41,873 bases of DNA from a candidate division FCPU426 bacterium (GTDB lineage Bacteria; Oederibacteriota; JAUXIB01). Below the pieces are notes generated by a model. That model saw nothing but the letters and a program-made list of their open reading frames with translations. It searched no databases and was not told the origin of the DNA. A program made the position numbers and the translations under genes. Location of the stretch: assembly GCA_030621225.1 (NCBI GenBank), contig JAUXIB010000003.1, positions 1-41,873 on the forward strand. The letters are read 5' to 3'. Positions 1-38,113 of this stretch are shown here, piece by piece; positions within the stretch are counted from its first letter, which is position 1; each line of letters starts with the position of its first letter.

Positions 1-35
1 GAGGACAGGAATCGGTTGTTGGTTGTTGGTAAAAA

Positions 36-235
36 AATCTGTGGTACGGTTGTCGGAGACCACCTTGTGACTTCTTTCCACCGGAAATTATAAGAAGAAG
101 TCGCCAATCTGTGGTACGAACACCAAAAGTGTTCTCGCGAGTTTCTACCTTGTTAAATATAACAGAAACTTGCCAATCTGTGGATTAGCCGTTAAGGAGA
201 CCTAATTCAGAAGCTCCAAAGAGAGAAATCTGTGG
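36..235 (+). repeat. Quasi-periodic AATCTGTGG-anchored units in ribD leader
   Basis: AATCTGTGG at 36, 106, 175 and 227 (spacing 70, 69, 52). The first two units each contain two hairpins and end in GCC. Confidence 0.8.
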
Positions 236-1305
236 ATGAAAAATATATGCGTCTCGCGTTAGACTTGGCCGAAAAGGGCCGCGGCAAGACCGGCCCTAAC
301 CCACTGGTCGGCGCGGTAGTGGTGCGCCGGGGACGTATCGTTGGCAGTGGTTATCACCGCGGTTCGGGTAAGCCCCATGCGGAGGCGATAGCCTTGAAGC
401 GCGCGGGGAGCGGCGCGAAAGACGCTACGCTCTATGTCAGCCTGGAGCCCTGTGTGCACGTAGGTAGGACTCCGCCCTGTGTGCCGCAAATAATTTCCGC
501 TGGGGTGCGACGGGTAGTGGTTGCTATGAGTGATCCCGATCGGCGGGTGAACGGCCGTGGTTTGCGCTCGTTGCGCCGGCTCGGCATCAAGCTGAGTCAG
601 GGGATCCTGGAACCAGAGGCGCGGCATCAAAACAGGGTGTACCTGAAGAACAAGCGGCATGGCTTGCCTTATGTCATTCTGAAATGGGCGATGAGTTTGG
701 ACGGCAAGATCGCCACACGGCGCGGCGATTCAAAATGGATCAGTTCGGGTGTTTCACGGCGTTTGGTTAAAAAAATGCGCGGTGAGGCGGACGGGGTGTT
801 GGTCGGCAGCAGGACGGCGCAGCTGGATGATCCTGGCTTGCGTGGAGGAAGCGGCGATGGCGCGGCCGTGGTACTCGACCCGGAGTTGACGGTGCGGGGA
901 AAAATGAAGTTTGCTCGGGGCGGTCGTTCGCTGGTGGTGACGGCGCAGGGCGCGGGGAGCGCAACTCGCCGCAGGGAGTTGGCGCGGGCGGGTGTAGAGC
1001 TTATTGAATTGCCGCTGAGGCGTGGCCGGTTACCGTTGCGGCAGGCGTTGGCAAAATTATTCGATTCAGGGATGTATTCTTTGCTTGTGGAAGGCGGTGG
1101 TGAAACGAACGCCGCTTTTCTTGAGGCAGGTTTGGCGGACGAGCTAGCTGTTTTTGTCGCGCCTAAGCTGATCGGCGGCCGGGAAGCCATTACGCCGTTT
1201 GCGGGAGTTGGCATAGCCAAGCTTACCGGCGCGTTGCCGGTAAAGGGGTGGACGGTGGAGAAGTTGGGCCCGGATTTTTTGATTAAAGGGATTATCAAAA
1301 GTTAG
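232..1305 (+). CDS. ribD: Bifunctional diaminohydroxyphosphoribosylaminopyrimidine deaminase/reductase RibD
   Basis: PNPLVGAVVV, HAE and LEPC..GRTPPC zinc-deaminase motifs; KWAMSLDGKIA and LLVEGGG reductase motifs; GTG start. Confidence 0.97.
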   Translation: MDEKYMRLALDLAEKGRGKTGPNPLVGAVVVRRGRIVGSGYHRGSGKPHAEAIALKRAGSGAKDATLYVSLEPCVHVGRTPPCVPQIISAGVRRVVVAMSDPDRRVNGRGLRSLRRLGIKLSQGILEPEARHQNRVYLKNKRHGLPYVILKWAMSLDGKIATRRGDSKWISSGVSRRLVKKMRGEADGVLVGSRTAQLDDPGLRGGSGDGAAVVLDPELTVRGKMKFARGGRSLVVTAQGAGSATRRRELARAGVELIELPLRRGRLPLRQALAKLFDSGMYSLLVEGGGETNAAFLEAGLADELAVFVAPKLIGGREAITPFAGVGIAKLTGALPVKGWTVEKLGPDFLIKGIIKS

Positions 1306-1374
1306 TCGCGTGTCATGTGTCACGTGTCTTGCGTCGTTTGAGGCGACACGTGACAAGAGACCCGGGACGCGCGA
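1303..1374. repeat. Heptamer tandem array with inverted arms (GTGTCAC / GTGACAC type)
   Basis: gtgtcat gtgtcac gtgtctt gcgtcgt ... gcgacac gtgacaa gagaccc gggacgc. The core resembles those at 2695-2757 and 27456-27530. Confidence 0.8.
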
Positions 1375-1375
1375 T

Positions 1376-1422
1376 AGTAGTGGCGTCCCTCCGCGGGCGC
1401 CACCAGCCGAAGGCTGGTTAAC
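1376..1422 (+). repeat. 47-nt double-hairpin element, copy 1 (upstream of ribE)
   Basis: AGTAGTGGCGTCCCTCCGCGGGCGCCACCAGCCGAAGGCTGGTTAAC; 45/47 identical to 4093-4139. Confidence 0.9.
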
Positions 1423-1434
1423 GGCGACGAAAAA

Positions 1435-2076
1435 ATGTTTACAGGCATAATAAAATACCAGGGAAAATTGGAGCGCATTGAGCGCCGCGGTCCGGGTGGT
1501 CGCTTAGCGCTGAGTTGCCCTGAGCTTGACGGCAAGCTGGCGCATGGCGGTAGCCTGGCGGTGGATGGTGTGTGCCTGACAATGGTGGAAGCAGCCGGGG
1601 GTAGGTTTGTCTTTGATCTGTCAGGGGAGACTCTGGAATGTGCTACGTTCAAAGATCTGCCGGTGGGCCGGCTGCTTAACTTGGAATTGCCGCTGGCTGC
1701 CGGGGACCCTATCGGCGGGCACCTGGTTAGCGGTCATGTTGACGGGATTGCCGGGATCAAAGGGATCAAGACCGCACAGGATGGAACGGTGTTGTCCCTG
1801 GACTATATTAAGCCGCTGAAAGCGTATATATATGAGAAGTGTTCGGTGGCTGTTAACGGAGTTAGCTTGACGGTAGCATCTGTGAGCGGAGATATGTTTG
1901 AGATCGCTCTGATACCTGAGACGCTACGGGCTACTACTTTATATCTTTTGCGTGTTGGAGATATGGTTAACTTGGAAGCGGACACGCTGGTCAAGGCGAA
2001 ACTCCATGCTGAAAGTGAGCAGCAGGGGGATGGGTTGACGGTGGAGAAGTTAAGGCAGGCGGGATTCAGTCAGTAG
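1435..2076 (+). CDS. ribE: Riboflavin synthase (alpha subunit)
   Basis: N-terminal MFTGII, SLAVDGVCLT, GGHLVSGHVDG, SVAVNGVSLT, VNLEAD. Confidence 0.97.
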   Translation: MFTGIIKYQGKLERIERRGPGGRLALSCPELDGKLAHGGSLAVDGVCLTMVEAAGGRFVFDLSGETLECATFKDLPVGRLLNLELPLAAGDPIGGHLVSGHVDGIAGIKGIKTAQDGTVLSLDYIKPLKAYIYEKCSVAVNGVSLTVASVSGDMFEIALIPETLRATTLYLLRVGDMVNLEADTLVKAKLHAESEQQGDGLTVEKLRQAGFSQ

Positions 2077-2231
2077 CTCGTAGCTCGTAGTTCGTAGCTC
2101 GTTGTCTACTGATTACTGACTACTGACCATGACGTTTGACCTTTGACGTTGGACGGAAACAACGCTATACGTAATGCGCAATACGATACGTGGTCAGCAA
2201 ACAGGAGACGACCAACTAGATACGAGATACA
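2074..2231. repeat. Composite heptamer array (TAGCTCG / TACTGAC / TTTGACG blocks, then GATACG-type arm)
   Basis: Blocks are directly visible. 2074-2153 is an inverted counterpart of 16738-16838. Confidence 0.85.
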
Positions 2232-2248
2232 ACGTAAGGGGGGATACC

Positions 2249-2695
2249 ATGGAAATCGATGGTGTTGATCGGATCAAGCGTGGCGAGCTTGAGAAGGGGA
2301 AAAAGAAGGAAAAAACCGCTCCGACCGGCGAGGTTTTTAAGTCCGTGATGGGAGAGGCGGAAGGCCAGGAAAAACGCCGGGAGCTTGATCAGATCATGAA
2401 GGACGTGGAAGAGCAGGGCCAGAGCCTGCTCAAAAATTTCAAGCCGGAGGAAGTGAAGAAATATCGCGAGACTGTCGGTAGGTTTCTGTCTGTGGCGTTA
2501 GCTGAGAGCTACAAAGTATCGGAAAGCCATTCCATAGCGCGGGACGGCCGGTACACGGCACACTTGAACCTGGAGAAGATCGAGAGCGGTCTGGAGGAAC
2601 TGACCCAGACGGTAGTAAAGGGGCAGGTGGAACCATTGAAGTTGTTGGCTAAGATCGATGAGATCAAGGGGATGTTGTTCGATATGTATAAATAG
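2249..2695 (+). CDS. YaaR/DUF327-family protein
   Basis: Size and pattern (LDQIMKDVEEQGQSL, VKKYRETVGRFL, IDEIKGMLFDMY) resemble DUF327. ATG 2249 follows a G-rich SD; the longer ORF start at 2174 lies in repeat sequence. Confidence 0.75.
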   Translation: MEIDGVDRIKRGELEKGKKKEKTAPTGEVFKSVMGEAEGQEKRRELDQIMKDVEEQGQSLLKNFKPEEVKKYRETVGRFLSVALAESYKVSESHSIARDGRYTAHLNLEKIESGLEELTQTVVKGQVEPLKLLAKIDEIKGMLFDMYK

Positions 2696-2757
2696 GTCTC
2701 GCGTCTCGCGTCGTTTGTCCGCGGCGACGCGTGACACGTGACTTGTGACACGCGACA
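2695..2757. repeat. Heptamer hairpin array (GCGTCTC / GTGACAC)
   Basis: ggtctc gcgtctc gcgtcgt ... gcgacgc gtgacac gtgactt gtgacac gcgaca. Confidence 0.8.
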
Positions 2758-2770
2758 AAGAGGAGAATTA

Positions 2771-3973
2771 ATGAAGACCGCTAAAATAGAAGACGCGCTA
2801 AAGGATTTAAAAAAAGGCAAGATGGTTGTGATCGTGGATGATGCGGATCGCGAGAACGAAGGTGATCTGGCGATGGCCGCTGATAAGGTGACGCCGCAGG
2901 CGATCAATTTTATGGCTAAGTACGGCCGTGGACTGATCTGCGTTGCCCTGACCTCAAAACGGCTTGACGATCTGGGATTGCCGCAGATGGTGAATGACAA
3001 TACCTCTAATTACGGCACTGCCTTTACCGTCAGTGTGGACGCACGCTCCGGTACTACCACGGGCATATCAGCGGCTGATCGCGCCGGTACCATTAGCCAG
3101 TTGTTGGATCCCAAGCTCGGTGCGGATGATTTCATGCAGCCCGGGCATACTTTCCCGCTACGCGCAAGTGATGGCGGTGTTCTGGTGCGTGCTGGTCAGA
3201 CTGAGGCGGTGGTGGATATGGCGCGACTGGCGGGCCGTTATCCGGCGGGGGTCATCTGCGAGATCATGGATGAAGACGGGACGATGGCGCGTATGCCTAG
3301 ATTGCTCGCCTTTGCCAAGCGGCACCGTCTGAAAGTAGTTGCCATTGCCGATCTGATAAGTTATCGCCGTCGTACCGAGGTGCTGGTGCGCGAGACCGCG
3401 GTGGCTCGGATCGATAACGAATTTGGCGAGTGGCGACTGCATCTTTTCAAGTCTCTGACTGACAAGCGGGTGCATCTGGCTCTGGTCAAGGGAGAACTCA
3501 GTCCGGTGCGGGCGTCGCTGGTGCGGGTTCATTCAGAATGTCTTACCGGTGATGTTCTGGGGAGTATGCGCTGTGATTGTGGTGAGCAGTTAAACCGGGC
3601 GATGCGGATGATCTCTGAGGCGGGGAGCGGGGTACTATTGTATCTGCGCCAGGAAGGGCGCGGCATCGGTTTGGAGGAGAAGATAAAGGCCTACTGTTTG
3701 CAGGACAGCGGCTTGGATACCGTGGAGGCGAACCAGTTATTGGGGTATCCGGCAGACCTCAGGGAGTACGGTACGGGCGCGCAGATCTTGCGCTTGCTGG
3801 GGGTGAAGAATATTAATCTGCTGACCAATAATCCGCGCAAGATAGTGGGCCTGAAGGGGCATGGGCTCAAGGTTGTAAAGCGGGTGGCCTTGGAGGTAGG
3901 GGTGACTAAGCAGAGTCAGCGGTATCTGAAGACGAAGCGGGATAAACTGGGACATCTTCTCAAGGTAAAATGA
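2771..3973 (+). CDS. ribBA: Bifunctional DHBP synthase / GTP cyclohydrolase II
   Basis: DDADRENEGDL, GHTFPL, RAGQTEA, VICEIMDEDG, RVHSECLTGD, RCDCGEQL, QEGRGIGL, TNNPRK. AGGAG SD before ATG 2771. Confidence 0.97.
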   Translation: MKTAKIEDALKDLKKGKMVVIVDDADRENEGDLAMAADKVTPQAINFMAKYGRGLICVALTSKRLDDLGLPQMVNDNTSNYGTAFTVSVDARSGTTTGISAADRAGTISQLLDPKLGADDFMQPGHTFPLRASDGGVLVRAGQTEAVVDMARLAGRYPAGVICEIMDEDGTMARMPRLLAFAKRHRLKVVAIADLISYRRRTEVLVRETAVARIDNEFGEWRLHLFKSLTDKRVHLALVKGELSPVRASLVRVHSECLTGDVLGSMRCDCGEQLNRAMRMISEAGSGVLLYLRQEGRGIGLEEKIKAYCLQDSGLDTVEANQLLGYPADLREYGTGAQILRLLGVKNINLLTNNPRKIVGLKGHGLKVVKRVALEVGVTKQSQRYLKTKRDKLGHLLKVK

Positions 3974-4092
3974 GGCGCGTATCTTGTAGCTTCCGCCGTC
4001 GTTAACACTGCCATAAATATTACTTTTATGGTTAGGAGCGTCAACTATGGCGGACAAGCGTAGCTAGTAGTTCGTTGGCATGACCGCGAGCC

Positions 4093-4139
4093 AGTAGTGG
4101 CGTCCCTCTGTGGGCGCCACCAGCCGAAGGCTGGTTAAC
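4093..4139 (+). repeat. 47-nt double-hairpin element, copy 2 (upstream of ribH)
   Basis: Matches 1376-1422; both mismatches lie in the first hairpin loop. Confidence 0.9.
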
Positions 4140-4169
4140 CAGACGTGAACCAAAAAAAGGAGGTATGCA

Positions 4170-4640
4170 GTGATGAAGACCTACGAAGGAAAACTTAACG
4201 CCGAGGGGTTGAAGGTAGCCCTGGTAGTCAGTCGTTTCAATGATTTCATTACCGAGAAATTATTGGCAGGAGCGGTGGACACTTTGCAGAGGCATGGCGT
4301 CAAAGAGAGCGGGCTGAGTGTTTACCGGGTGCCCGGTTCATTTGAATTGCCCGTGGTAGCCGCGAAGGTGGCGCAGGCCGGCGGCGTTGACGCGGTTATC
4401 TGCCTGGGCGCGGTCATCCGCGGCGGCACGCCGCATTTTGACTATGTGGCCGGTGAGTCGGCCAAGGGTGTGGCTAAAGTAGCGATGGAAAGTAAGGTGC
4501 CGGTGATCTATGGAGTAGTTACCACGGATACTATCGAGCAGGCGGTGGAGCGCGCGGGGACGAAGATGGGTAATCGTGGCGCGGACGCGGCGATGTCCGC
4601 TATTGAAATGGCACAGCTTTATCGATCAATGGGAAAGTGA
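4170..4640 (+). CDS. ribH: 6,7-dimethyl-8-ribityllumazine synthase
   Basis: [48 protein letters not shown]; start is GTG 4170 or ATG 4173. Confidence 0.97.
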
Positions 4641-4715
4641 TGCGTCTATCGGCTATAGTCTATCGGGGTATAGGCGCGTAACGATCAACGATAGTCGATA
4701 AACGATTAACGCAAC
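4641..4715. repeat. Heptamer array with inverted arms (GTCTATC / ACGATAR)
   Basis: gtctatc ggctata gtctatc ... acgatca acgatag tcgataa acgatta. Confidence 0.7.
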
Positions 4716-4718
4716 AAA

Positions 4719-5114
4719 ATGACCAAAACAGCACGTCGTTTAGAAAGAGAAGCCGCGCTTAAGGAGCTTTACCGCTTGGAGTATGACTCCGAGAGTAAGG
4801 TTCGTCTGTGTGGGGAATACGCTTGCCGGCTTATTGACGGCGTGCGGGAGCAGCGGCAAGAGCTGGATAAGCTGATCAAGAAACGGCTTAAAAAGTCCTG
4901 GCCGTTTAAAAGGATAGCCTTGATGGATGTGCTGATCATGCGCATCGCTATTTACGAGATACTTGAGGTAGAGGAAGTTGACGCGGCCATCTCTATTAAT
5001 GAGGCCTTGGAACTGGTGCGCGAATTTTCCGAGGAAAAGTCGGTGGCTTTTGTCAACGGAGTGCTGGATGGGGTGGGTAAGGAAGCGGCGGGCGGTGGTC
5101 CGCTTCGTAGCTAG
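4719..5114 (+). CDS. nusB: Transcription antitermination factor NusB
   Basis: RRLEREAALKELY, W...RIALMDVLIMRIAIYE, ISINEALELVREF, FVNGVLD; canonical position after ribH. Confidence 0.93.
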   Translation: MTKTARRLEREAALKELYRLEYDSESKVRLCGEYACRLIDGVREQRQELDKLIKKRLKKSWPFKRIALMDVLIMRIAIYEILEVEEVDAAISINEALELVREFSEEKSVAFVNGVLDGVGKEAAGGGPLRS

Positions 5115-5153
5115 TAGCTCGGAGTTCGTAGCTCGTTGGCTGTTAGTAAAAAA

Positions 5154-7151
5154 ATGGATGAAGAAAAAGCAAAAAAAGAAATCGCTTCCCTGCGTGAGGA
5201 GATAGAGCGGCATAACAAGCGTTACTATCTTGACGCTGCTCCTGAGATCTCCGACCGCGATTATGACCGCCTAATGGATCGTTTGATCGCCCTTGAGCAG
5301 GAATACCCCGAGTTGATCACCCCTGATTCTCCTTCGCAACGCGTTGGCGGCGAGCCGCTCAAGAAATTCGCTAGCGTTGGGCACAAAGTGCCGATGATGA
5401 GTCTGGACAATACATATAACAGTGATGAACTGATTAAGTTTGACGAACGGGTAAAAAAGGGGCTTGGCGGAGAGGCTCCGGAATATATAGTGGAGTTGAA
5501 GTACGACGGGGTGGCGGTGGCGTTGAAATACGAGCAGGGTGTGTTGATACAGGGTAGCACTCGTGGCGATGGAAAAAAGGGAGATGATATCACTGCAAAC
5601 CTGCGTACCATCAAGAGTTTGCCCCTGCGGTTGACCAGGGAGGAGACGCTGGAAGTTCGCGGCGAGGTATATATTGACAAGAAGGATTTGGAGGAGATAA
5701 ATTTAGAACGGGACCAAAACGGCGAGCCGCTTTTCGCGAATCCAAGAAACGCCGCCGCTGGCTCGCTAAAGCTGTTGGATCCCGGGATTGTGGCGAAAAG
5801 ACCATTGAAGCTGTATATTTACACGTTGATATCAGATACGATCATGGTTGATAACCAGTATGATGCACTTGGTCACGTGAATAAGTTGGGCTTCCGTATA
5901 CAGTTAGAGTATCCCAAGCCACTTGATGATATCGGTCAGGTAACCACTTATTGCCGTAAAGATTTGGAAGGCGCGCGGGACACGTTCCCGTTCGAAGTAG
6001 ATGGTGCTGTTGTGAAGGTTAACTCATTTGCCCAACAGGAACGCCTTGGTGCTACCAGCAAGAGTCCCCGCTGGGCCATTTCTTATAAATTTGAGGTACA
6101 GCAGGTGCAGACGAGGCTCGAAAAGATAACACTACAAGTAGGGCGTACGGGTGCAATAACCCCTGTTGCGGAATTAGTGTCGCAGGATATTGCCGGAAGT
6201 ACAGTAAGCAGGGCCACCCTGCATAATGCGGACGAGATTGCTCGCAAGGATATTAGGGAAGGCGATGTTGTGACGATCGAGAAGGCTGGAGCGGTGATCC
6301 CCAAGGTAGTCGAGGTATTTGAGCCGTCCAAGAAACAGCGAGACGCAAACAGTAGGCCCTTTATTTTCCCCGAGAAGTGTCCCTCCTGTCATGGAGCGTT
6401 GACGCGGCCTGAAGGCGAGGTGGTGCATCGTTGTTTAAATATATCTTGTCCGGCCCAGTTCCTGAGGCGTTTGCAGCACTTTGTGGCGCGGGATGCCATG
6501 GATATCGAGGGGCTGGGACCGCAAACGCTGGAGCTTCTGGTGGAGCAGAGAATGGTTAATGATTTTTCGGATCTTTATAGTTTGGATCCGCTTAAGCTGG
6601 CCGAGTTGCCGCGCATGGGGGAAAAGTCTGCCGAGAATTTGAAGGAATCGTTGGCGCGTTCCAAGGGACATGGTATGTCGCGCTTGCTTTTCGCGCTGGG
6701 GCCCAGGCACGTGGGGCGTCAGACGGCGGAGTCGCTGGCGGAGCATTTTTCTTCTTTGGAGAAGCTGGCGCGCGCGGCGGAAGAGGAATTAGTCGAGGTG
6801 AACGATGTTGGTCCGGAAGTGGCGCAATCGTTGCTGAGTTTTTTTGCTCATGCGGATAATCAACTGATCATTGAGCGGCTTAAAGCGGCCGGTCTTTCGC
6901 TTAACGCGCCGCAACGGGTGGTCGGCAAGCTCTCGGGCAAGGTTTTCCTGTTTACCGGTGGTTTGGCCGACTATTCGCGTCCCCAGGCCGGAGAGAAGGT
7001 GAGGGCATTGGGCGGCCGGGTGGTGTCGGCGGTCAGCGCCAAGGTTGATTTCGTGGTGGCGGGGGAAGACCCGGGGAGTAAAGCCAAGAAAGCAGAGAAA
7101 CTCGGCCTAAAGATTATCAGTGAAGCCGAGTTTCTTCAGCTTATAAAGTAG
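5154..7151 (+). CDS. ligA: NAD-dependent DNA ligase
   Basis: ISDRDYD, ELKYDG adenylation motif, EVRGEV, NPRNAAAGSL, Cys4 zinc finger, HhH repeats, C-terminal BRCT. ATG 5154 preferred over TTG 5136, which lies in a repeat. Confidence 0.97.
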   Translation: MDEEKAKKEIASLREEIERHNKRYYLDAAPEISDRDYDRLMDRLIALEQEYPELITPDSPSQRVGGEPLKKFASVGHKVPMMSLDNTYNSDELIKFDERVKKGLGGEAPEYIVELKYDGVAVALKYEQGVLIQGSTRGDGKKGDDITANLRTIKSLPLRLTREETLEVRGEVYIDKKDLEEINLERDQNGEPLFANPRNAAAGSLKLLDPGIVAKRPLKLYIYTLISDTIMVDNQYDALGHVNKLGFRIQLEYPKPLDDIGQVTTYCRKDLEGARDTFPFEVDGAVVKVNSFAQQERLGATSKSPRWAISYKFEVQQVQTRLEKITLQVGRTGAITPVAELVSQDIAGSTVSRATLHNADEIARKDIREGDVVTIEKAGAVIPKVVEVFEPSKKQRDANSRPFIFPEKCPSCHGALTRPEGEVVHRCLNISCPAQFLRRLQHFVARDAMDIEGLGPQTLELLVEQRMVNDFSDLYSLDPLKLAELPRMGEKSAENLKESLARSKGHGMSRLLFALGPRHVGRQTAESLAEHFSSLEKLARAAEEELVEVNDVGPEVAQSLLSFFAHADNQLIIERLKAAGLSLNAPQRVVGKLSGKVFLFTGGLADYSRPQAGEKVRALGGRVVSAVSAKVDFVVAGEDPGSKAKKAEKLGLKIISEAEFLQLIK

Positions 7152-10788: not shown

Positions 10789-12009
10789 GTGGAGTTGGAC
10801 TTTAGAAAAAGCATAATCTGTGTAATCTGTGTAATCTGTGGATTGACTGGTAATGCCAAGACCGTTAAGGATGAACTAAAGGAGCAGACGGCGTCCAAAT
10901 TGCCGGTCAAGCTGAGGATCAGCGAACTGCAGGTCAATCCCCAGACCACCTTCATCCTGCCCGACGGCAGCATTCGCATGAATGTGGAAGTGCTTAATCG
11001 CGGCGGTATATCTTTGGCGGCTACATCAAAATACAACTTTGTCAATAGTGACATAGACTATCGCATTAAATACTCGTATGTTTTCGGCAGAAACAACATC
11101 GGCCTGTCTGTTTTTGACAGTATAGATTTTGAGAAGGTTTTTTCCGATAGCCGTTTTATTGCCCGCAAGCGCGGCGGTGAAGGGGGATATTGGCGGCGTC
11201 TGGGCAGGTTTTACAGCATTGGCATGACGCTTTCAAGTGAGCAGCATTTCATGGTGCCGTTGGTGGAAGAGACTGTAGACTATGATAAGTCTACGCTCAA
11301 TAGCGGCACGACGCGTTTGGCTTATGATTCTCGCGACAATGGCAGCGACCCGCGCGCGGGTACTATGTACTGGGTGAGTTTCAAGCAGGCTACTGAGGAA
11401 CTGGACGGAGATTACCGTTACAACAAGGCCGAAATGGGACTGCGTAAATATTTCGGCTTGCGTTTTTTCGCCGCCGAAGATGCCGAGCCGAAAGAGAAGA
11501 AAAAGCGGAAAAGTAAGAAGAAAAAAAAGAATAAAGTGGCACCGGGAAAGAACCTGATCATTGCGCTGGAAGGTCTTTACGGAGCGGTTCCTTACAAGCG
11601 GCGGATCAGCGCCGAGCGTGAAGCGGTGCCTTATCTGGATCATTATCGTCTGGGCGGCTTTCGCAACTTGCGTGGTTACGCGGTAGACGAATTCATGGGG
11701 GAGGATGTTGTCAGTCAGCGGGTGGAGGTTCGTCTCTCCTACAAGGCCACGGAACCCGTGGGCAAGATTTGGGGGCTTTACTTTGACCGGATAGAGCTTG
11801 TTGGCAGCTATGACGTCGGGGTTATCGGCGAAAACGTCTATTGCCGTCGGGGTTACCTGCGGCAGGTCGCCCGCCAGGGGGTTGCCTATGGCTTTCGTTT
11901 CAAGCTTAATGTTAAACGGAAGATTAGTATGATACTATATTTGATGGAGGGGCGAGCTTTGCGGCAGAACAGGGACGGGGTGTTTTATCTTTCATATACT
12001 ATTTATTAG
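10789..12009 (+). CDS. Omp85-superfamily (Bac_surface_Ag-like) beta-barrel protein without obvious POTRA domains
   Basis: AYDSRDNGSDPRAG, YRLGGFRNLRGY (L6 VRGY-like motif), alternating aromatic C-terminal strand. GTG 10789 follows GAGGAGG; signal-peptide-like N-terminus. Confidence 0.65.
   Translation: MELDFRKSIICVICVICGLTGNAKTVKDELKEQTASKLPVKLRISELQVNPQTTFILPDGSIRMNVEVLNRGGISLAATSKYNFVNSDIDYRIKYSYVFGRNNIGLSVFDSIDFEKVFSDSRFIARKRGGEGGYWRRLGRFYSIGMTLSSEQHFMVPLVEETVDYDKSTLNSGTTRLAYDSRDNGSDPRAGTMYWVSFKQATEELDGDYRYNKAEMGLRKYFGLRFFAAEDAEPKEKKKRKSKKKKKNKVAPGKNLIIALEGLYGAVPYKRRISAEREAVPYLDHYRLGGFRNLRGYAVDEFMGEDVVSQRVEVRLSYKATEPVGKIWGLYFDRIELVGSYDVGVIGENVYCRRGYLRQVARQGVAYGFRFKLNVKRKISMILYLMEGRALRQNRDGVFYLSYTIY
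10814..10841 (+). repeat. 3 x 9-nt TAATCTGTG repeat inside CDS (ICVICVICG)
   Basis: taatctgtg taatctgtg taatctgtg g. Confidence 0.9.
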
Positions 12010-36963: not shown

Positions 36964-37003
36964 TAGTTCATTGGTAGTTGGGATAGATGGGGGTTTGAAA
37001 TCT

Positions 37004-38113
37004 GTGGACAAAAAATATGATTTTGAGGAACGGCTGGCTCGGATAGCGCTTAATTTCCTGCCGCAGATAGGCGGTTTGCGCTTGCAGGCTCTGCTCAAGA
37101 GATATCGCCGGGCGAAGAGCGTGCTCGAGGCGCGGCAAAGTGAGCTGTCCCGGGTGCCGGGGATCGGCGTCAAGGGGGCGGCTGGTATCAAGGCACTGAG
37201 TTTGCAGGACGCTGAGGTGGAATATGAAAAGGCCGCTGGCCGGGGGATAGAGATAGTTTGTCTGGGGGAGAGCGGCTATCCTGAGTCTTTGGCTTGCATT
37301 CCGCAACCACCGGCGGTGCTTTATATTTGGGGGTGTCGGCAAACGTTAGCGGAACCCATGGTTGGTATTGTCGGTTGTCGGCGACCAACGTCCTATGGGA
37401 TCAGAACGGCCGGGGTGATGAGCCGCGGACTGGTTCGGGCCGGGTTTGTCGTTGTTAGTGGTCTGGCGCGCGGTATAGATAGTGAAGCGCATCGGGCCGC
37501 TCTGGCAGCCGGGGGTAGAACGGTGGCTGCACTCGCGGCGGGGTTTGACCATATTTATCCGCCCGAGAACAAACAGCTTTTGCGGAAGATGGTCGACGGC
37601 GGGGTGGCGGTGAGTGAGTTCCCATTGCGGATGAAACCCCTGAAACAGAATTTCCCCTTCCGTAACAGAATTATCAGCGGACTCAGTCGGGGGGTGGTGG
37701 TCGTGCAGGGGCAGCGGGGGAGTGGCGCGTTGATCACTGCGAATTTTGCGCTGGAGCAGGGGCGGGAAGTGTTCGCGGTGCCGGGAGAAGTAGGGATAAA
37801 GGAATCGGAGGGTCCGCACACGCTTATTCGCCAGGGAGCACGATTAGTGCGGGACGTAACAGATATCCTGAAGGACTTGGAATATGAGTCGGAACGATTG
37901 AGGCCCCAGCGGGGACCGGATCTCAAGGACTTGACAGCTGTGGAGGAAAAGGTGCTACGCGCCATCGGCAAGGCAACGCTGCATCCGGATGAAGTAATAG
38001 TCAAGACCGAGATCTCAGCCGGAGACCTGATGCAAGTGTTGCTCGGGTTGGAGTTGAAAGGTTTCGTGCGCCGCACGGCAGGGGAACGTTATTTTTTAAG
38101 CGGCAAGCTATAG
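37004..38113 (+). CDS. dprA: DNA-processing protein DprA (Smf)
   Basis: YPESLACI..PPAVLY, GIVGCRRPTSYG, VVSGLARGIDSEAH, VSEFP, FPFRNRIISGLS, SGALITA, C-terminal winged helix. GTG 37004 preferred. Confidence 0.96.
   Translation: MDKKYDFEERLARIALNFLPQIGGLRLQALLKRYRRAKSVLEARQSELSRVPGIGVKGAAGIKALSLQDAEVEYEKAAGRGIEIVCLGESGYPESLACIPQPPAVLYIWGCRQTLAEPMVGIVGCRRPTSYGIRTAGVMSRGLVRAGFVVVSGLARGIDSEAHRAALAAGGRTVAALAAGFDHIYPPENKQLLRKMVDGGVAVSEFPLRMKPLKQNFPFRNRIISGLSRGVVVVQGQRGSGALITANFALEQGREVFAVPGEVGIKESEGPHTLIRQGARLVRDVTDILKDLEYESERLRPQRGPDLKDLTAVEEKVLRAIGKATLHPDEVIVKTEISAGDLMQVLLGLELKGFVRRTAGERYFLSGKL

Follow-up and report, generated by a model that had tools for sequence, protein, structure and literature searches.

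Contig C110 of a candidate division FCPU426 bacterium opens with a short array of tandem units that leads directly into ribD, and the question that this locus raises is whether the units are a regulatory RNA of the rib operon or part of something that is spread over the genome. The stretch of DNA analyzed here (G000:C110:1-41873, hereafter the window) is the start of that contig, 41,873 nucleotides long, in an assembly of 2.6 Mb and 266 contigs. A previous reading of the letters alone (the sequence-only reading) had proposed that units A, B, and C form a tandem cis-regulatory RNA specific to rib. We observe instead that the same units occur genome-wide beside unrelated genes, in either orientation, and that the ribD leader of a sister genus has no such unit, so that this proposal is not sustained. 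Occurrence across the genome without a tie to rib genes had been named in advance as what would tell against it, and we find 89 covariance-model matches and 37 copies of unit C. Units A, B, and C are very probably dispersed, lineage-specific modular intergenic repeats rather than a rib-specific RNA. Together with a flavin mononucleotide (FMN) riboswitch that we infer to lie at the adjoining end of another contig, this provides an explanation of the locus as a whole that we regard as likely, with considerable confidence.

Array layout, genome-wide spread, and conserved fold

The array and the gene that it precedes comprise the following features, all on the + strand.

1..35 (+): probably the right end of a noncoding core repeat of ~230 nt; lies at the contig start, with GGTTGTTGGTAAAAA abutting the first nonamer
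36..44 (+): nonamer AATCTGTGG, copy 1, the unit of the arm repeat
36..105 (+): module A, subfamily A, two hairpins; model R1 scores 86.7 bits at C110:36-107
106..174 (+): module B, subfamily B, two hairpins, opening with nonamer copy 2 (106-114); model R1 scores 80.7 bits at C110:106-176
175..226 (+): module C, 52 nt, opening with nonamer copy 3 (175-183); short hairpin of ATTAG (184-188) and CTAAT (202-206)
227..235 (+): nonamer copy 4, holding the GTG (232-234) that is most likely the ribD start
232..1305 (+): ribD, encoding deaminase and reductase (Pfam PF00383 and PF01872)

The four leader copies of AATCTGTGG lie where they had been read, at 36-44, 106-114, 175-183, and 227-235, with spacings of 70, 69, and 52 nt. 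The whole window has six copies, against 0.30 expected, and 0 of 100 shuffles reached six; the remaining two are located away from the ribD leader, at 10833-10841 and 36999-37007. In unit A, AATCTGTGG-TAC is followed by hairpin 1 (GGTTGTC at 48-54, loop GGA, GACCACC at 58-64, one T.C mismatch) and hairpin 2 (GTGACTTCT at 67-75 paired with AGAAGTCGC at 96-104, one T.G wobble). Unit B has the same AATCTGTGG-TAC opening, with GAACAC (118-123), CAAAA, and GTGTTC (129-134) as hairpin 1, and GCGAGTTTCT (137-146) paired with AGAAACTTGC (164-173) as hairpin 2. The sequence-only reading had recognized both hairpins in both units, with one error in the letters, since the 3' arm of hairpin 1 in A is GACCACC and not GACACC. 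Its hairpin in unit C and its placement of the ribD start within the fourth nonamer are likewise confirmed. The 3' end of module C is purine-rich (AAAGAGAGA), and the GTG at 232-234 is the sole canonical start upstream of the conserved RibD N terminus DEKYM, which is common to the RibD of the window and that of the sister genus.

The array is one of many. The nonamer AATCTGTGG has 220 copies in the genome, versus 10 to 24 for control words, and CCAATCTGTGG has 28, versus 1 for its control. Iterated nhmmer searches recovered ~15 near-full copies of A, ~26 of B (94 to 100% identical), 37 of C, and 11 of subfamily D, a third relative of A and B that sits among AATC(C/A)GCG nonamers. Covariance model R1, which was built on an alignment of 35 distinct A, B, and D copies, gives 89 matches in the genome, 52 of them at ≥74 bits; the ~37 more divergent matches represent four or more additional subfamilies, which differ from one another in their stems and in the context that flanks them. 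There are two families of module: the two-hairpin family, consisting of A, B, D, and these divergent subfamilies (at least four), and a second family of 52 nt, which is C.

We observe 99 module copies in 67 arrays, which read AB, BA, BC, AC, CBC, CAB, BAC, or CC or consist of a single module. The joints between modules always fall at a nonamer, and one left-flank sequence leads into different module strings at different loci. With gene positions taken from a purpose-made crude caller of open reading frames (ORFs) and codon usage, the A/B/D/C arrays checked are intergenic, with one overlap with a crude ORF call, and their orientation relative to the downstream gene is sense in 31 cases and antisense in 27. 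The modules thus show the properties of a short hairpin repeat with many intergenic copies. Within 300 nt of contig ends, which make up 6.1% of the genome, we find 32 of 104 module matches; this five-fold enrichment indicates that the repeats break the assembly and that true copy numbers are higher. A mobile promoter or terminator was also considered as the identity of the modules and was rejected, with none found on the + strand by a consensus scan of window positions 1 to 400 and with orientation to genes being random. The Rfam check that the sequence-only reading had recommended returned, for window positions 1 to 6000 at E ≤ 10, chance-level matches only (wcaG at 22.8 bits versus a cut-off of 42), and no family was matched.

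A and B are genuinely homologous units with conserved hairpins and compensatory changes. Across the 35 distinct A, B, and D copies, which span three subfamilies, 93.6% of the cells pair, compared to 38 to 55% when the partners are slid by 1 to 3 columns, and 13 of the 17 pairs have changed on both sides, in line with the earlier impression that the stems of A and B differ in sequence and still pair, as in covariation. RNAalifold, which had also been advised, predicts the same two helices without constraints (11 of 15 pairs compensatory). Most of the double changes distinguish one of the three subfamilies from another, and independent compensatory events are therefore few; double changes are also present within subfamily A (GTGAC/GTCAC, GTGAC/GTCGC, and GCGAC/GTCGC). 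The A/B family module is ~60 to 70 nt long, with a hairpin 1 of 6 to 7 bp closed by a GGA or GNRA-like loop and a hairpin 2 of 8 to 10 bp with an 18- to 20-nt loop, nCC(A/G)YC-n-(G/T)ATAT(C/T)A. The tetranucleotide 5' of hairpin 1 is GTAC in A, B, and D, which we take to resemble the GTAG of enterobacterial REPs, and GTCC or CTCC in other subfamilies. Unit C has a weak consensus fold (−3.0 kcal/mol, 33 distinct copies aligned), and the minimum free energy (MFE) z-scores of the window copies are uneven (B, −4.3; A, −1.3; C, −0.6). The forward strand has the more stable MFE in 9 of 35 copies here and in 12 of 20 in the sister genome, and a strand asymmetry from G.U wobbles was dropped, as this comparison shows none. 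A loop-loop pseudoknot (GGA with UCC) was discarded as well, being lost in the B, F, and G001 copies when alignments were inspected by eye.

The fold extends beyond this genus. G001, the only other genome of the same family, represents a different genus and has at least 20 R1 copies with the fold; in 97 further genomes of the phylum, R1 gave two marginal matches only. A blastn search of unit B against 30 relatives found no match outside its own genome, and sequence search alone was misleading here, because the covariance model found the fold in the sister genus. Sister copies read GCCCGCC-GGA-GGCGGGC, GCGC, then GGCTTCTC-loop-GAGAAGC, with 96.8% of the cells paired and 10 of 17 pairs covarying in an alignment that was fitted to the model, and the large-loop motif is common to both genera. 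They are flanked by other short repeats, AAGTGGG or TACCGNN, in place of AATCTGTGG, from which it follows that the nonamer itself is inessential. No A/B unit was found in the sister ribD leader (L107), none of the 20 R1 matches listed for that genome being on the ribD contig. For genome biology, this is a compact family of structured modules, with strong covariation, in two genera that is near absent from the other 97 genomes of the phylum and in which the short tandem repeat around the modules differs from subfamily to subfamily. Through such a family, the origin of the many densely packed repeats of these uncultured bacteria becomes accessible to study.

The FMN riboswitch and the rib operon

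The sequence-only reading had noted that no FMN consensus is visible before ribD. This holds for the window, where RF00050 finds no match in positions 1 to 6000 even at E ≤ 10, but not for the genome, which has an FMN riboswitch at the end of contig C33; it is not visible in the window because the contig begins 231 nt before ribD. The match at C33:108-352 (−) is the sole one to RF00050 in the genome and scores 102.9 bits, with a gathering score of 66.2 bits. It is preceded by a TTGACC-16-TATAAT promoter and followed by a GC-rich hairpin and T-run at 69-45, and this terminator ends 44 nt before the contig end, which is a run of GCTCGTA heptamers. On the window side, a consensus scan of positions 1 to 400 detects no promoter on the + strand ahead of ribD. 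The sister genome has a conserved gene first, then an FMN riboswitch that scores 101.5 bits and is followed by a terminator, and lastly inverted heptamer arrays that lead into ribD; the two genomes share 77 to 83% amino acid identity in the gene upstream of the riboswitch and 66% in the RibD protein.

Given a lone riboswitch and a promoterless rib operon, each at a contig end that consists of repeats, it is simplest to read C33, on its reverse strand, as running into C110, and comparison of the two genomes makes it most likely that the riboswitch end of C33 joins the window start. Two points weigh against this join: C33 and C110 share no overlapping sequence, and the case is built on synteny to one sister genome and on the riboswitch and ribD each being single in the genome. 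With the join, the ribD operon would be under ordinary FMN riboswitch control, and the modules would occupy the part of its leader that follows the riboswitch terminator and precedes the start codon. The last nonamer would then incidentally supply the GTG start, and module C would supply the purine-rich stretch before it. Units A to C have no similarity to RF00050 and would be located past its terminator. For annotation, this removes a false lead toward a new riboswitch class, as rib control would be ordinary FMN attenuation hidden by an assembly break that the repeats caused.

The variable P3 loop of the FMN aptamer is enlarged in both genera (C33:108-352 (−) and L107:1435-1704) by an insertion of ~109 nt. 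The insertion consists of short repeats with the words GCGGAGA, ACGCGGA, and TTCCGCG, and short-repeat arrays have therefore also colonized a tolerant loop of a functional RNA.

The operon has the order ribD-ribE-DUF327-ribBA-ribH-nusB, with the genes after ribD matching, in order, PF00677, PF03885, PF00926 plus PF00925, PF00885, and PF01029; the DUF327 (PF03885) gene, at window positions 2174-2695, lies between ribE and ribBA within it. The nearest RibD relatives in the genome collection searched have 43 to 45% identity and come from mixed phyla. An exact-protein look-up and two metagenome pattern scans gave no match to the ribD locus in independent assemblies.

Nonamer arms, possible mobility, and alternative explanations

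The nonamer AATCTGTGG and its relatives AATCTGTG(T/A) make short tandem runs, which are arranged as arms. There are 40 inverted −/+ pairs (CCACAGATT...AATCTGTGG), compared to 2 of the +/− arrangement, and they enclose 135 to 650 nt, typically 220 to 330. The enclosed interiors are homologous in 39 of 40 cases and have no open frame, and this core recurs at least 60 times (examples of armed cores are G000:C55:95-335, C77:8153-8452, and C10:6287-6572). Modules A, B, and C lie within the arms, between nonamers. At C56:7613 and C76:4553, the right junction of the core reads GGTTGTTRGYWAAAAA and then ATCTGTG, and the first 35 nt of the window match it, so that the ribD array looks like the right arm of the element. 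Judged by this match, A-B-C probably sit in the right nonamer arm of one element resembling a miniature inverted-repeat transposable element (MITE), and the contig starts inside the element because repeats broke the assembly. The modules themselves do not have the features of a MITE; the inverted arms (40 pairs) belong to the larger nonamer-armed element of ~230 nt.

The word TGTGGATAA, the reverse complement of the DnaA-box consensus TTATCCACA, has 61 copies in the genome, 37 of them inside AATCTGTGGATAA, and occurs in the window within 175-187 and 227-239. Since these DnaA-box-like words are mostly repeat-derived, they provide no evidence for a replication origin, and for origin prediction most TGTGGATAA words are uninformative.

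With respect to how the modules spread, the two hairpins and the loop motif may have been kept because copying or mobilizing a module depends on a folded single strand. The most plausible agent would be an HUH/Y1-type enzyme that acts on hairpins of single-stranded DNA, as for REP elements and RAYT transposases, and modules would be reshuffled via recombination between nonamers. The genome has seven Y1_Tnp ORFs and, at G000:C248:23741-24211, a classical REP-RAYT pair, in which a Y1_Tnp gene of 150 residues has a GTAG-type REP in three direct copies upstream and one inverted copy downstream. These make an HUH-type enzyme a reasonable agent; by analogy with such systems, a single-stranded DNA mechanism of this type is put forward tentatively, as a proposal that could well prove wrong. 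A search for TnpB (PF07282) found none in the genome. Going further, the R1 module might be the recognition unit, a nick- or origin-like site, of a lineage-specific copying system with an HUH-type or other single-stranded DNA enzyme, which we consider rather unlikely. Such an enzyme would seed modules into whichever tandem array of 7- to 9-nt units the context of each subfamily has, and, if true, this would connect a structured unit that is mobile with the arrays of short repeats in these genomes.

Several observations weigh against mobilization by such an enzyme. In flanks of ~1.5 kb around the seven Y1 genes here and three in G001, R1 has no match above 8 bits, several of these flanks being cut by contig ends. 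The family of long Y1 proteins is uninformative because it is present in 60 of 99 phylum genomes, nearly all of them without modules. The aligned modules show no terminal inverted repeats, the nonamers flanking D are unequal on the left and right and so are not target-site duplications, and the two hairpins within a module are unlike each other, in contrast to the ends of IS200/IS605. Furthermore, fold energy has no strand asymmetry. The modules of the ribD leader, being sense, would be transcribed by read-through and may have an incidental effect on mRNA stability or translation.

Target-site duplication was itself examined as an origin of the flanking nonamers; it fits A and B and is ruled out by D, in which the left and right nonamers differ at positions 5 and 9. 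Some D loops read TAATATTAC, presumably the 9-nt site at which circular single-stranded DNA replicons are cut by their Rep proteins. The long Y1_Tnp proteins (270 to 310 residues) are present in several copies (C29:5517-6443, C118:3-815, C131:3429-4067, C241, C127, and C239), often at contig ends, and their relatives in the 60 genomes often have many copies each. The C-terminal part of the C29 protein has a Bac_DnaA_C match below threshold (21.2 versus 31.5 bits, E = 2.9e-4), and a DnaA-box-binding transposase that acts on TGTGGATAA is speculation. The 47-nt double hairpin before ribE (1377-1421) and ribH (4094-4138) is the GTAG-type REP of C248, which reads GTAGTGGCGTCCC...GCGCCAC and then CCAGCC-GAA-GGCTGG; GTAGTGGCG[TC]CCC has 24 copies in the genome. 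A Y1 gene that is 42% identical to the C248 gene is present in the sister genus.

Alternatives to dispersed repeat modules differ in how much of this they explain. The nonamers could be crossover points and the modules passive spacers, which corresponds to the second option of the sequence-only reading, an array of recombination sites. Recombination at AATCTGTGG, either site-specific or based on short homology, would lengthen, shorten, and reshuffle the arrays, as has been proposed for dRS3 repeats and RS elements in the Neisseria intergenic mosaic elements (NIMEs; PMC1797815). Modules are found in all orders, with joints always exactly at the nonamer, one left flank precedes different module strings at different loci, and the NIME architecture, in which ~100 families of 50- to 150-bp units are split by a short repeat, is a close formal analogue (PMC1797815). 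Passive spacers, however, would not keep their hairpins via 13 compensatory pair changes or across two genera, no recombinase is linked to the nonamer, and the sister modules, between AAGTGGG and TACCGNN, do without it. As a full explanation this is possible but unlikely; it explains the shuffling and not the conserved fold, and therefore complements the explanation by dispersed modules rather than replacing it. Little speaks for an assembly artefact, that is, a chimeric or collapsed contig end: its location within the first 235 nt of the contig and the five-fold enrichment of module matches near contig ends would agree with one, but the array passes without a break into the ribD coding sequence, whose start codon falls in the last nonamer, and many internal arrays with the same junctions are found far from contig ends (for example, on C77, C113, C156, and C216). 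Substitutions private to the A and B copies of the window show that these are not consensus copies produced by collapse, and an artefact is scarcely credible.

Two further alternatives assign the modules a function as RNA. They might be stabilizing or processing hairpins in untranslated regions, or a small-RNA family, the ribD copies modulating the ribD mRNA. Covariation is as expected of structured RNA, the loop sequence is kept between genera, and the leader modules, in sense orientation past the riboswitch terminator, would be transcribed when the switch is open; transcribed BOX and BIME repeats do affect neighboring genes (PMC3049150). This is nevertheless improbable, given that roughly one array in two is antisense to the genes on either side, that the forward strand is no more stable than the reverse, that the module is absent from the orthologous leader of the sister genus, and that neither a + strand promoter or terminator (consensus scan, window 1-400) nor an Rfam match (window 1-6000) was found. 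Far less probable still, to the point that we give it almost no weight, is a tandem, riboswitch-like RNA specific to rib that senses flavin or a related signal. The free order and number of the units, their presence by dozens of unrelated genes in both orientations, the canonical FMN riboswitch for the operon on C33, and a sister ribD that uses an FMN riboswitch and whose leader lacks the unit outweigh what this idea can draw on, namely, units with a conserved fold directly upstream of ribD and the lack of an FMN aptamer inside the window.

Comparison with known repeat families

Dispersed repeat modules of this kind have formal relatives. In NIMEs, dRS3 repeats separate RS elements, and the arrays are thought to be recombination substrates (PMC1797815). 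The likeness is in a short conserved repeat between many families of 50- to 150-bp modules, in intergenic arrays that vary by locus (PMC1797815), and we do find a NIME-like mosaic of diverse modules of ~50 to 150 bp, one short separator, and variable intergenic arrays. The separator differs, being a direct repeat of 9 nt, found in tandem runs as well, whereas dRS3 is a 20-bp palindrome (ATTCCCN8GGGAAT); AATCTGTGG is not palindromic, and no link of the nonamer to a phage or recombinase was found. In addition, the fold of the modules here is kept by covarying changes, whereas the description of RS elements allows them to be inert spacers, and the arrays here form the arms of a core repeat of ~230 nt. 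BOX elements of Streptococcus pneumoniae share modules of ~45 to 60 nt in variable internal number, with predicted stem-loops, as well as intergenic, cotranscribed positions from which they can affect neighboring genes (PMC3049150). They have a fixed A-Bn-C order with boxA-boxC pairing, whereas here the order is free and each module folds alone, and there is no sequence similarity.

REP, BIME, and REPIN repeats are likewise short extragenic hairpin repeats whose structure is kept while their sequence varies by lineage. The modules differ from REPs and REPINs in being direct tandem repeats with two unlike hairpins rather than inverted doublets, and they flank no Y1 gene. Closest to the nonamer runs are the heptamers of Xanthomonas and Nostoc (GGGNATC type; Rehm et al. 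2015), tandem units of 7 to 9 nt that are enriched between codirectional genes and often lie near start or stop codons (PMC4692102). The AATCTGTGN runs belong to the general class of these intergenic repeats. Quadruplexes cannot be formed by the units here, which, in contrast to the heptamers, are not G-rich; these units form inverted arms around the core or around small genes. Structured modules are intercalated in the runs here, a property that is absent from the abstract on the heptamers (PMC4692102). None of the families compared is matched in its defining details, and the modules are small, dispersed, structured intergenic repeats. What is new is the definition of the two-hairpin family, its covariation, its conservation in a second genus, its placement in nonamer arms, and the recovery of the riboswitch on C33.

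Inverted short repeats also surround genes. Small genes of PF13366 (PDDEXK_3) and PF05635 (23S rRNA intervening-sequence [IVS] protein) are bracketed by inverted runs of 7- to 9-nt repeats at G000:C126:17367-17714, C235:5977-6327, and C111:88-435, as well as on C146, C237, C232, C122, and C264. The bracketing repeats include NCTCTGTG nonamers or heptamers, and NCTCTGTG ends in GTGG, as do the AATCTGTGG arms. A scan of viral contigs for the module gave no match, and the triple nonamer AATCTGTGN x3 is found on eight IMG/VR stretches from seven contigs, none with an R1 module. It occurs six times on the GC-rich IMG/VR contig L115 (IMGVR_UViG_3300037264_001851), where one inverted pair (5570-5596 and 6349-6375) brackets an ORF of 221 residues beside an ORF of 736 residues, and the GGGGCGCACGGCGTGCGCCC hairpin on the same contig resembles one in the core repeat of the genome studied here.

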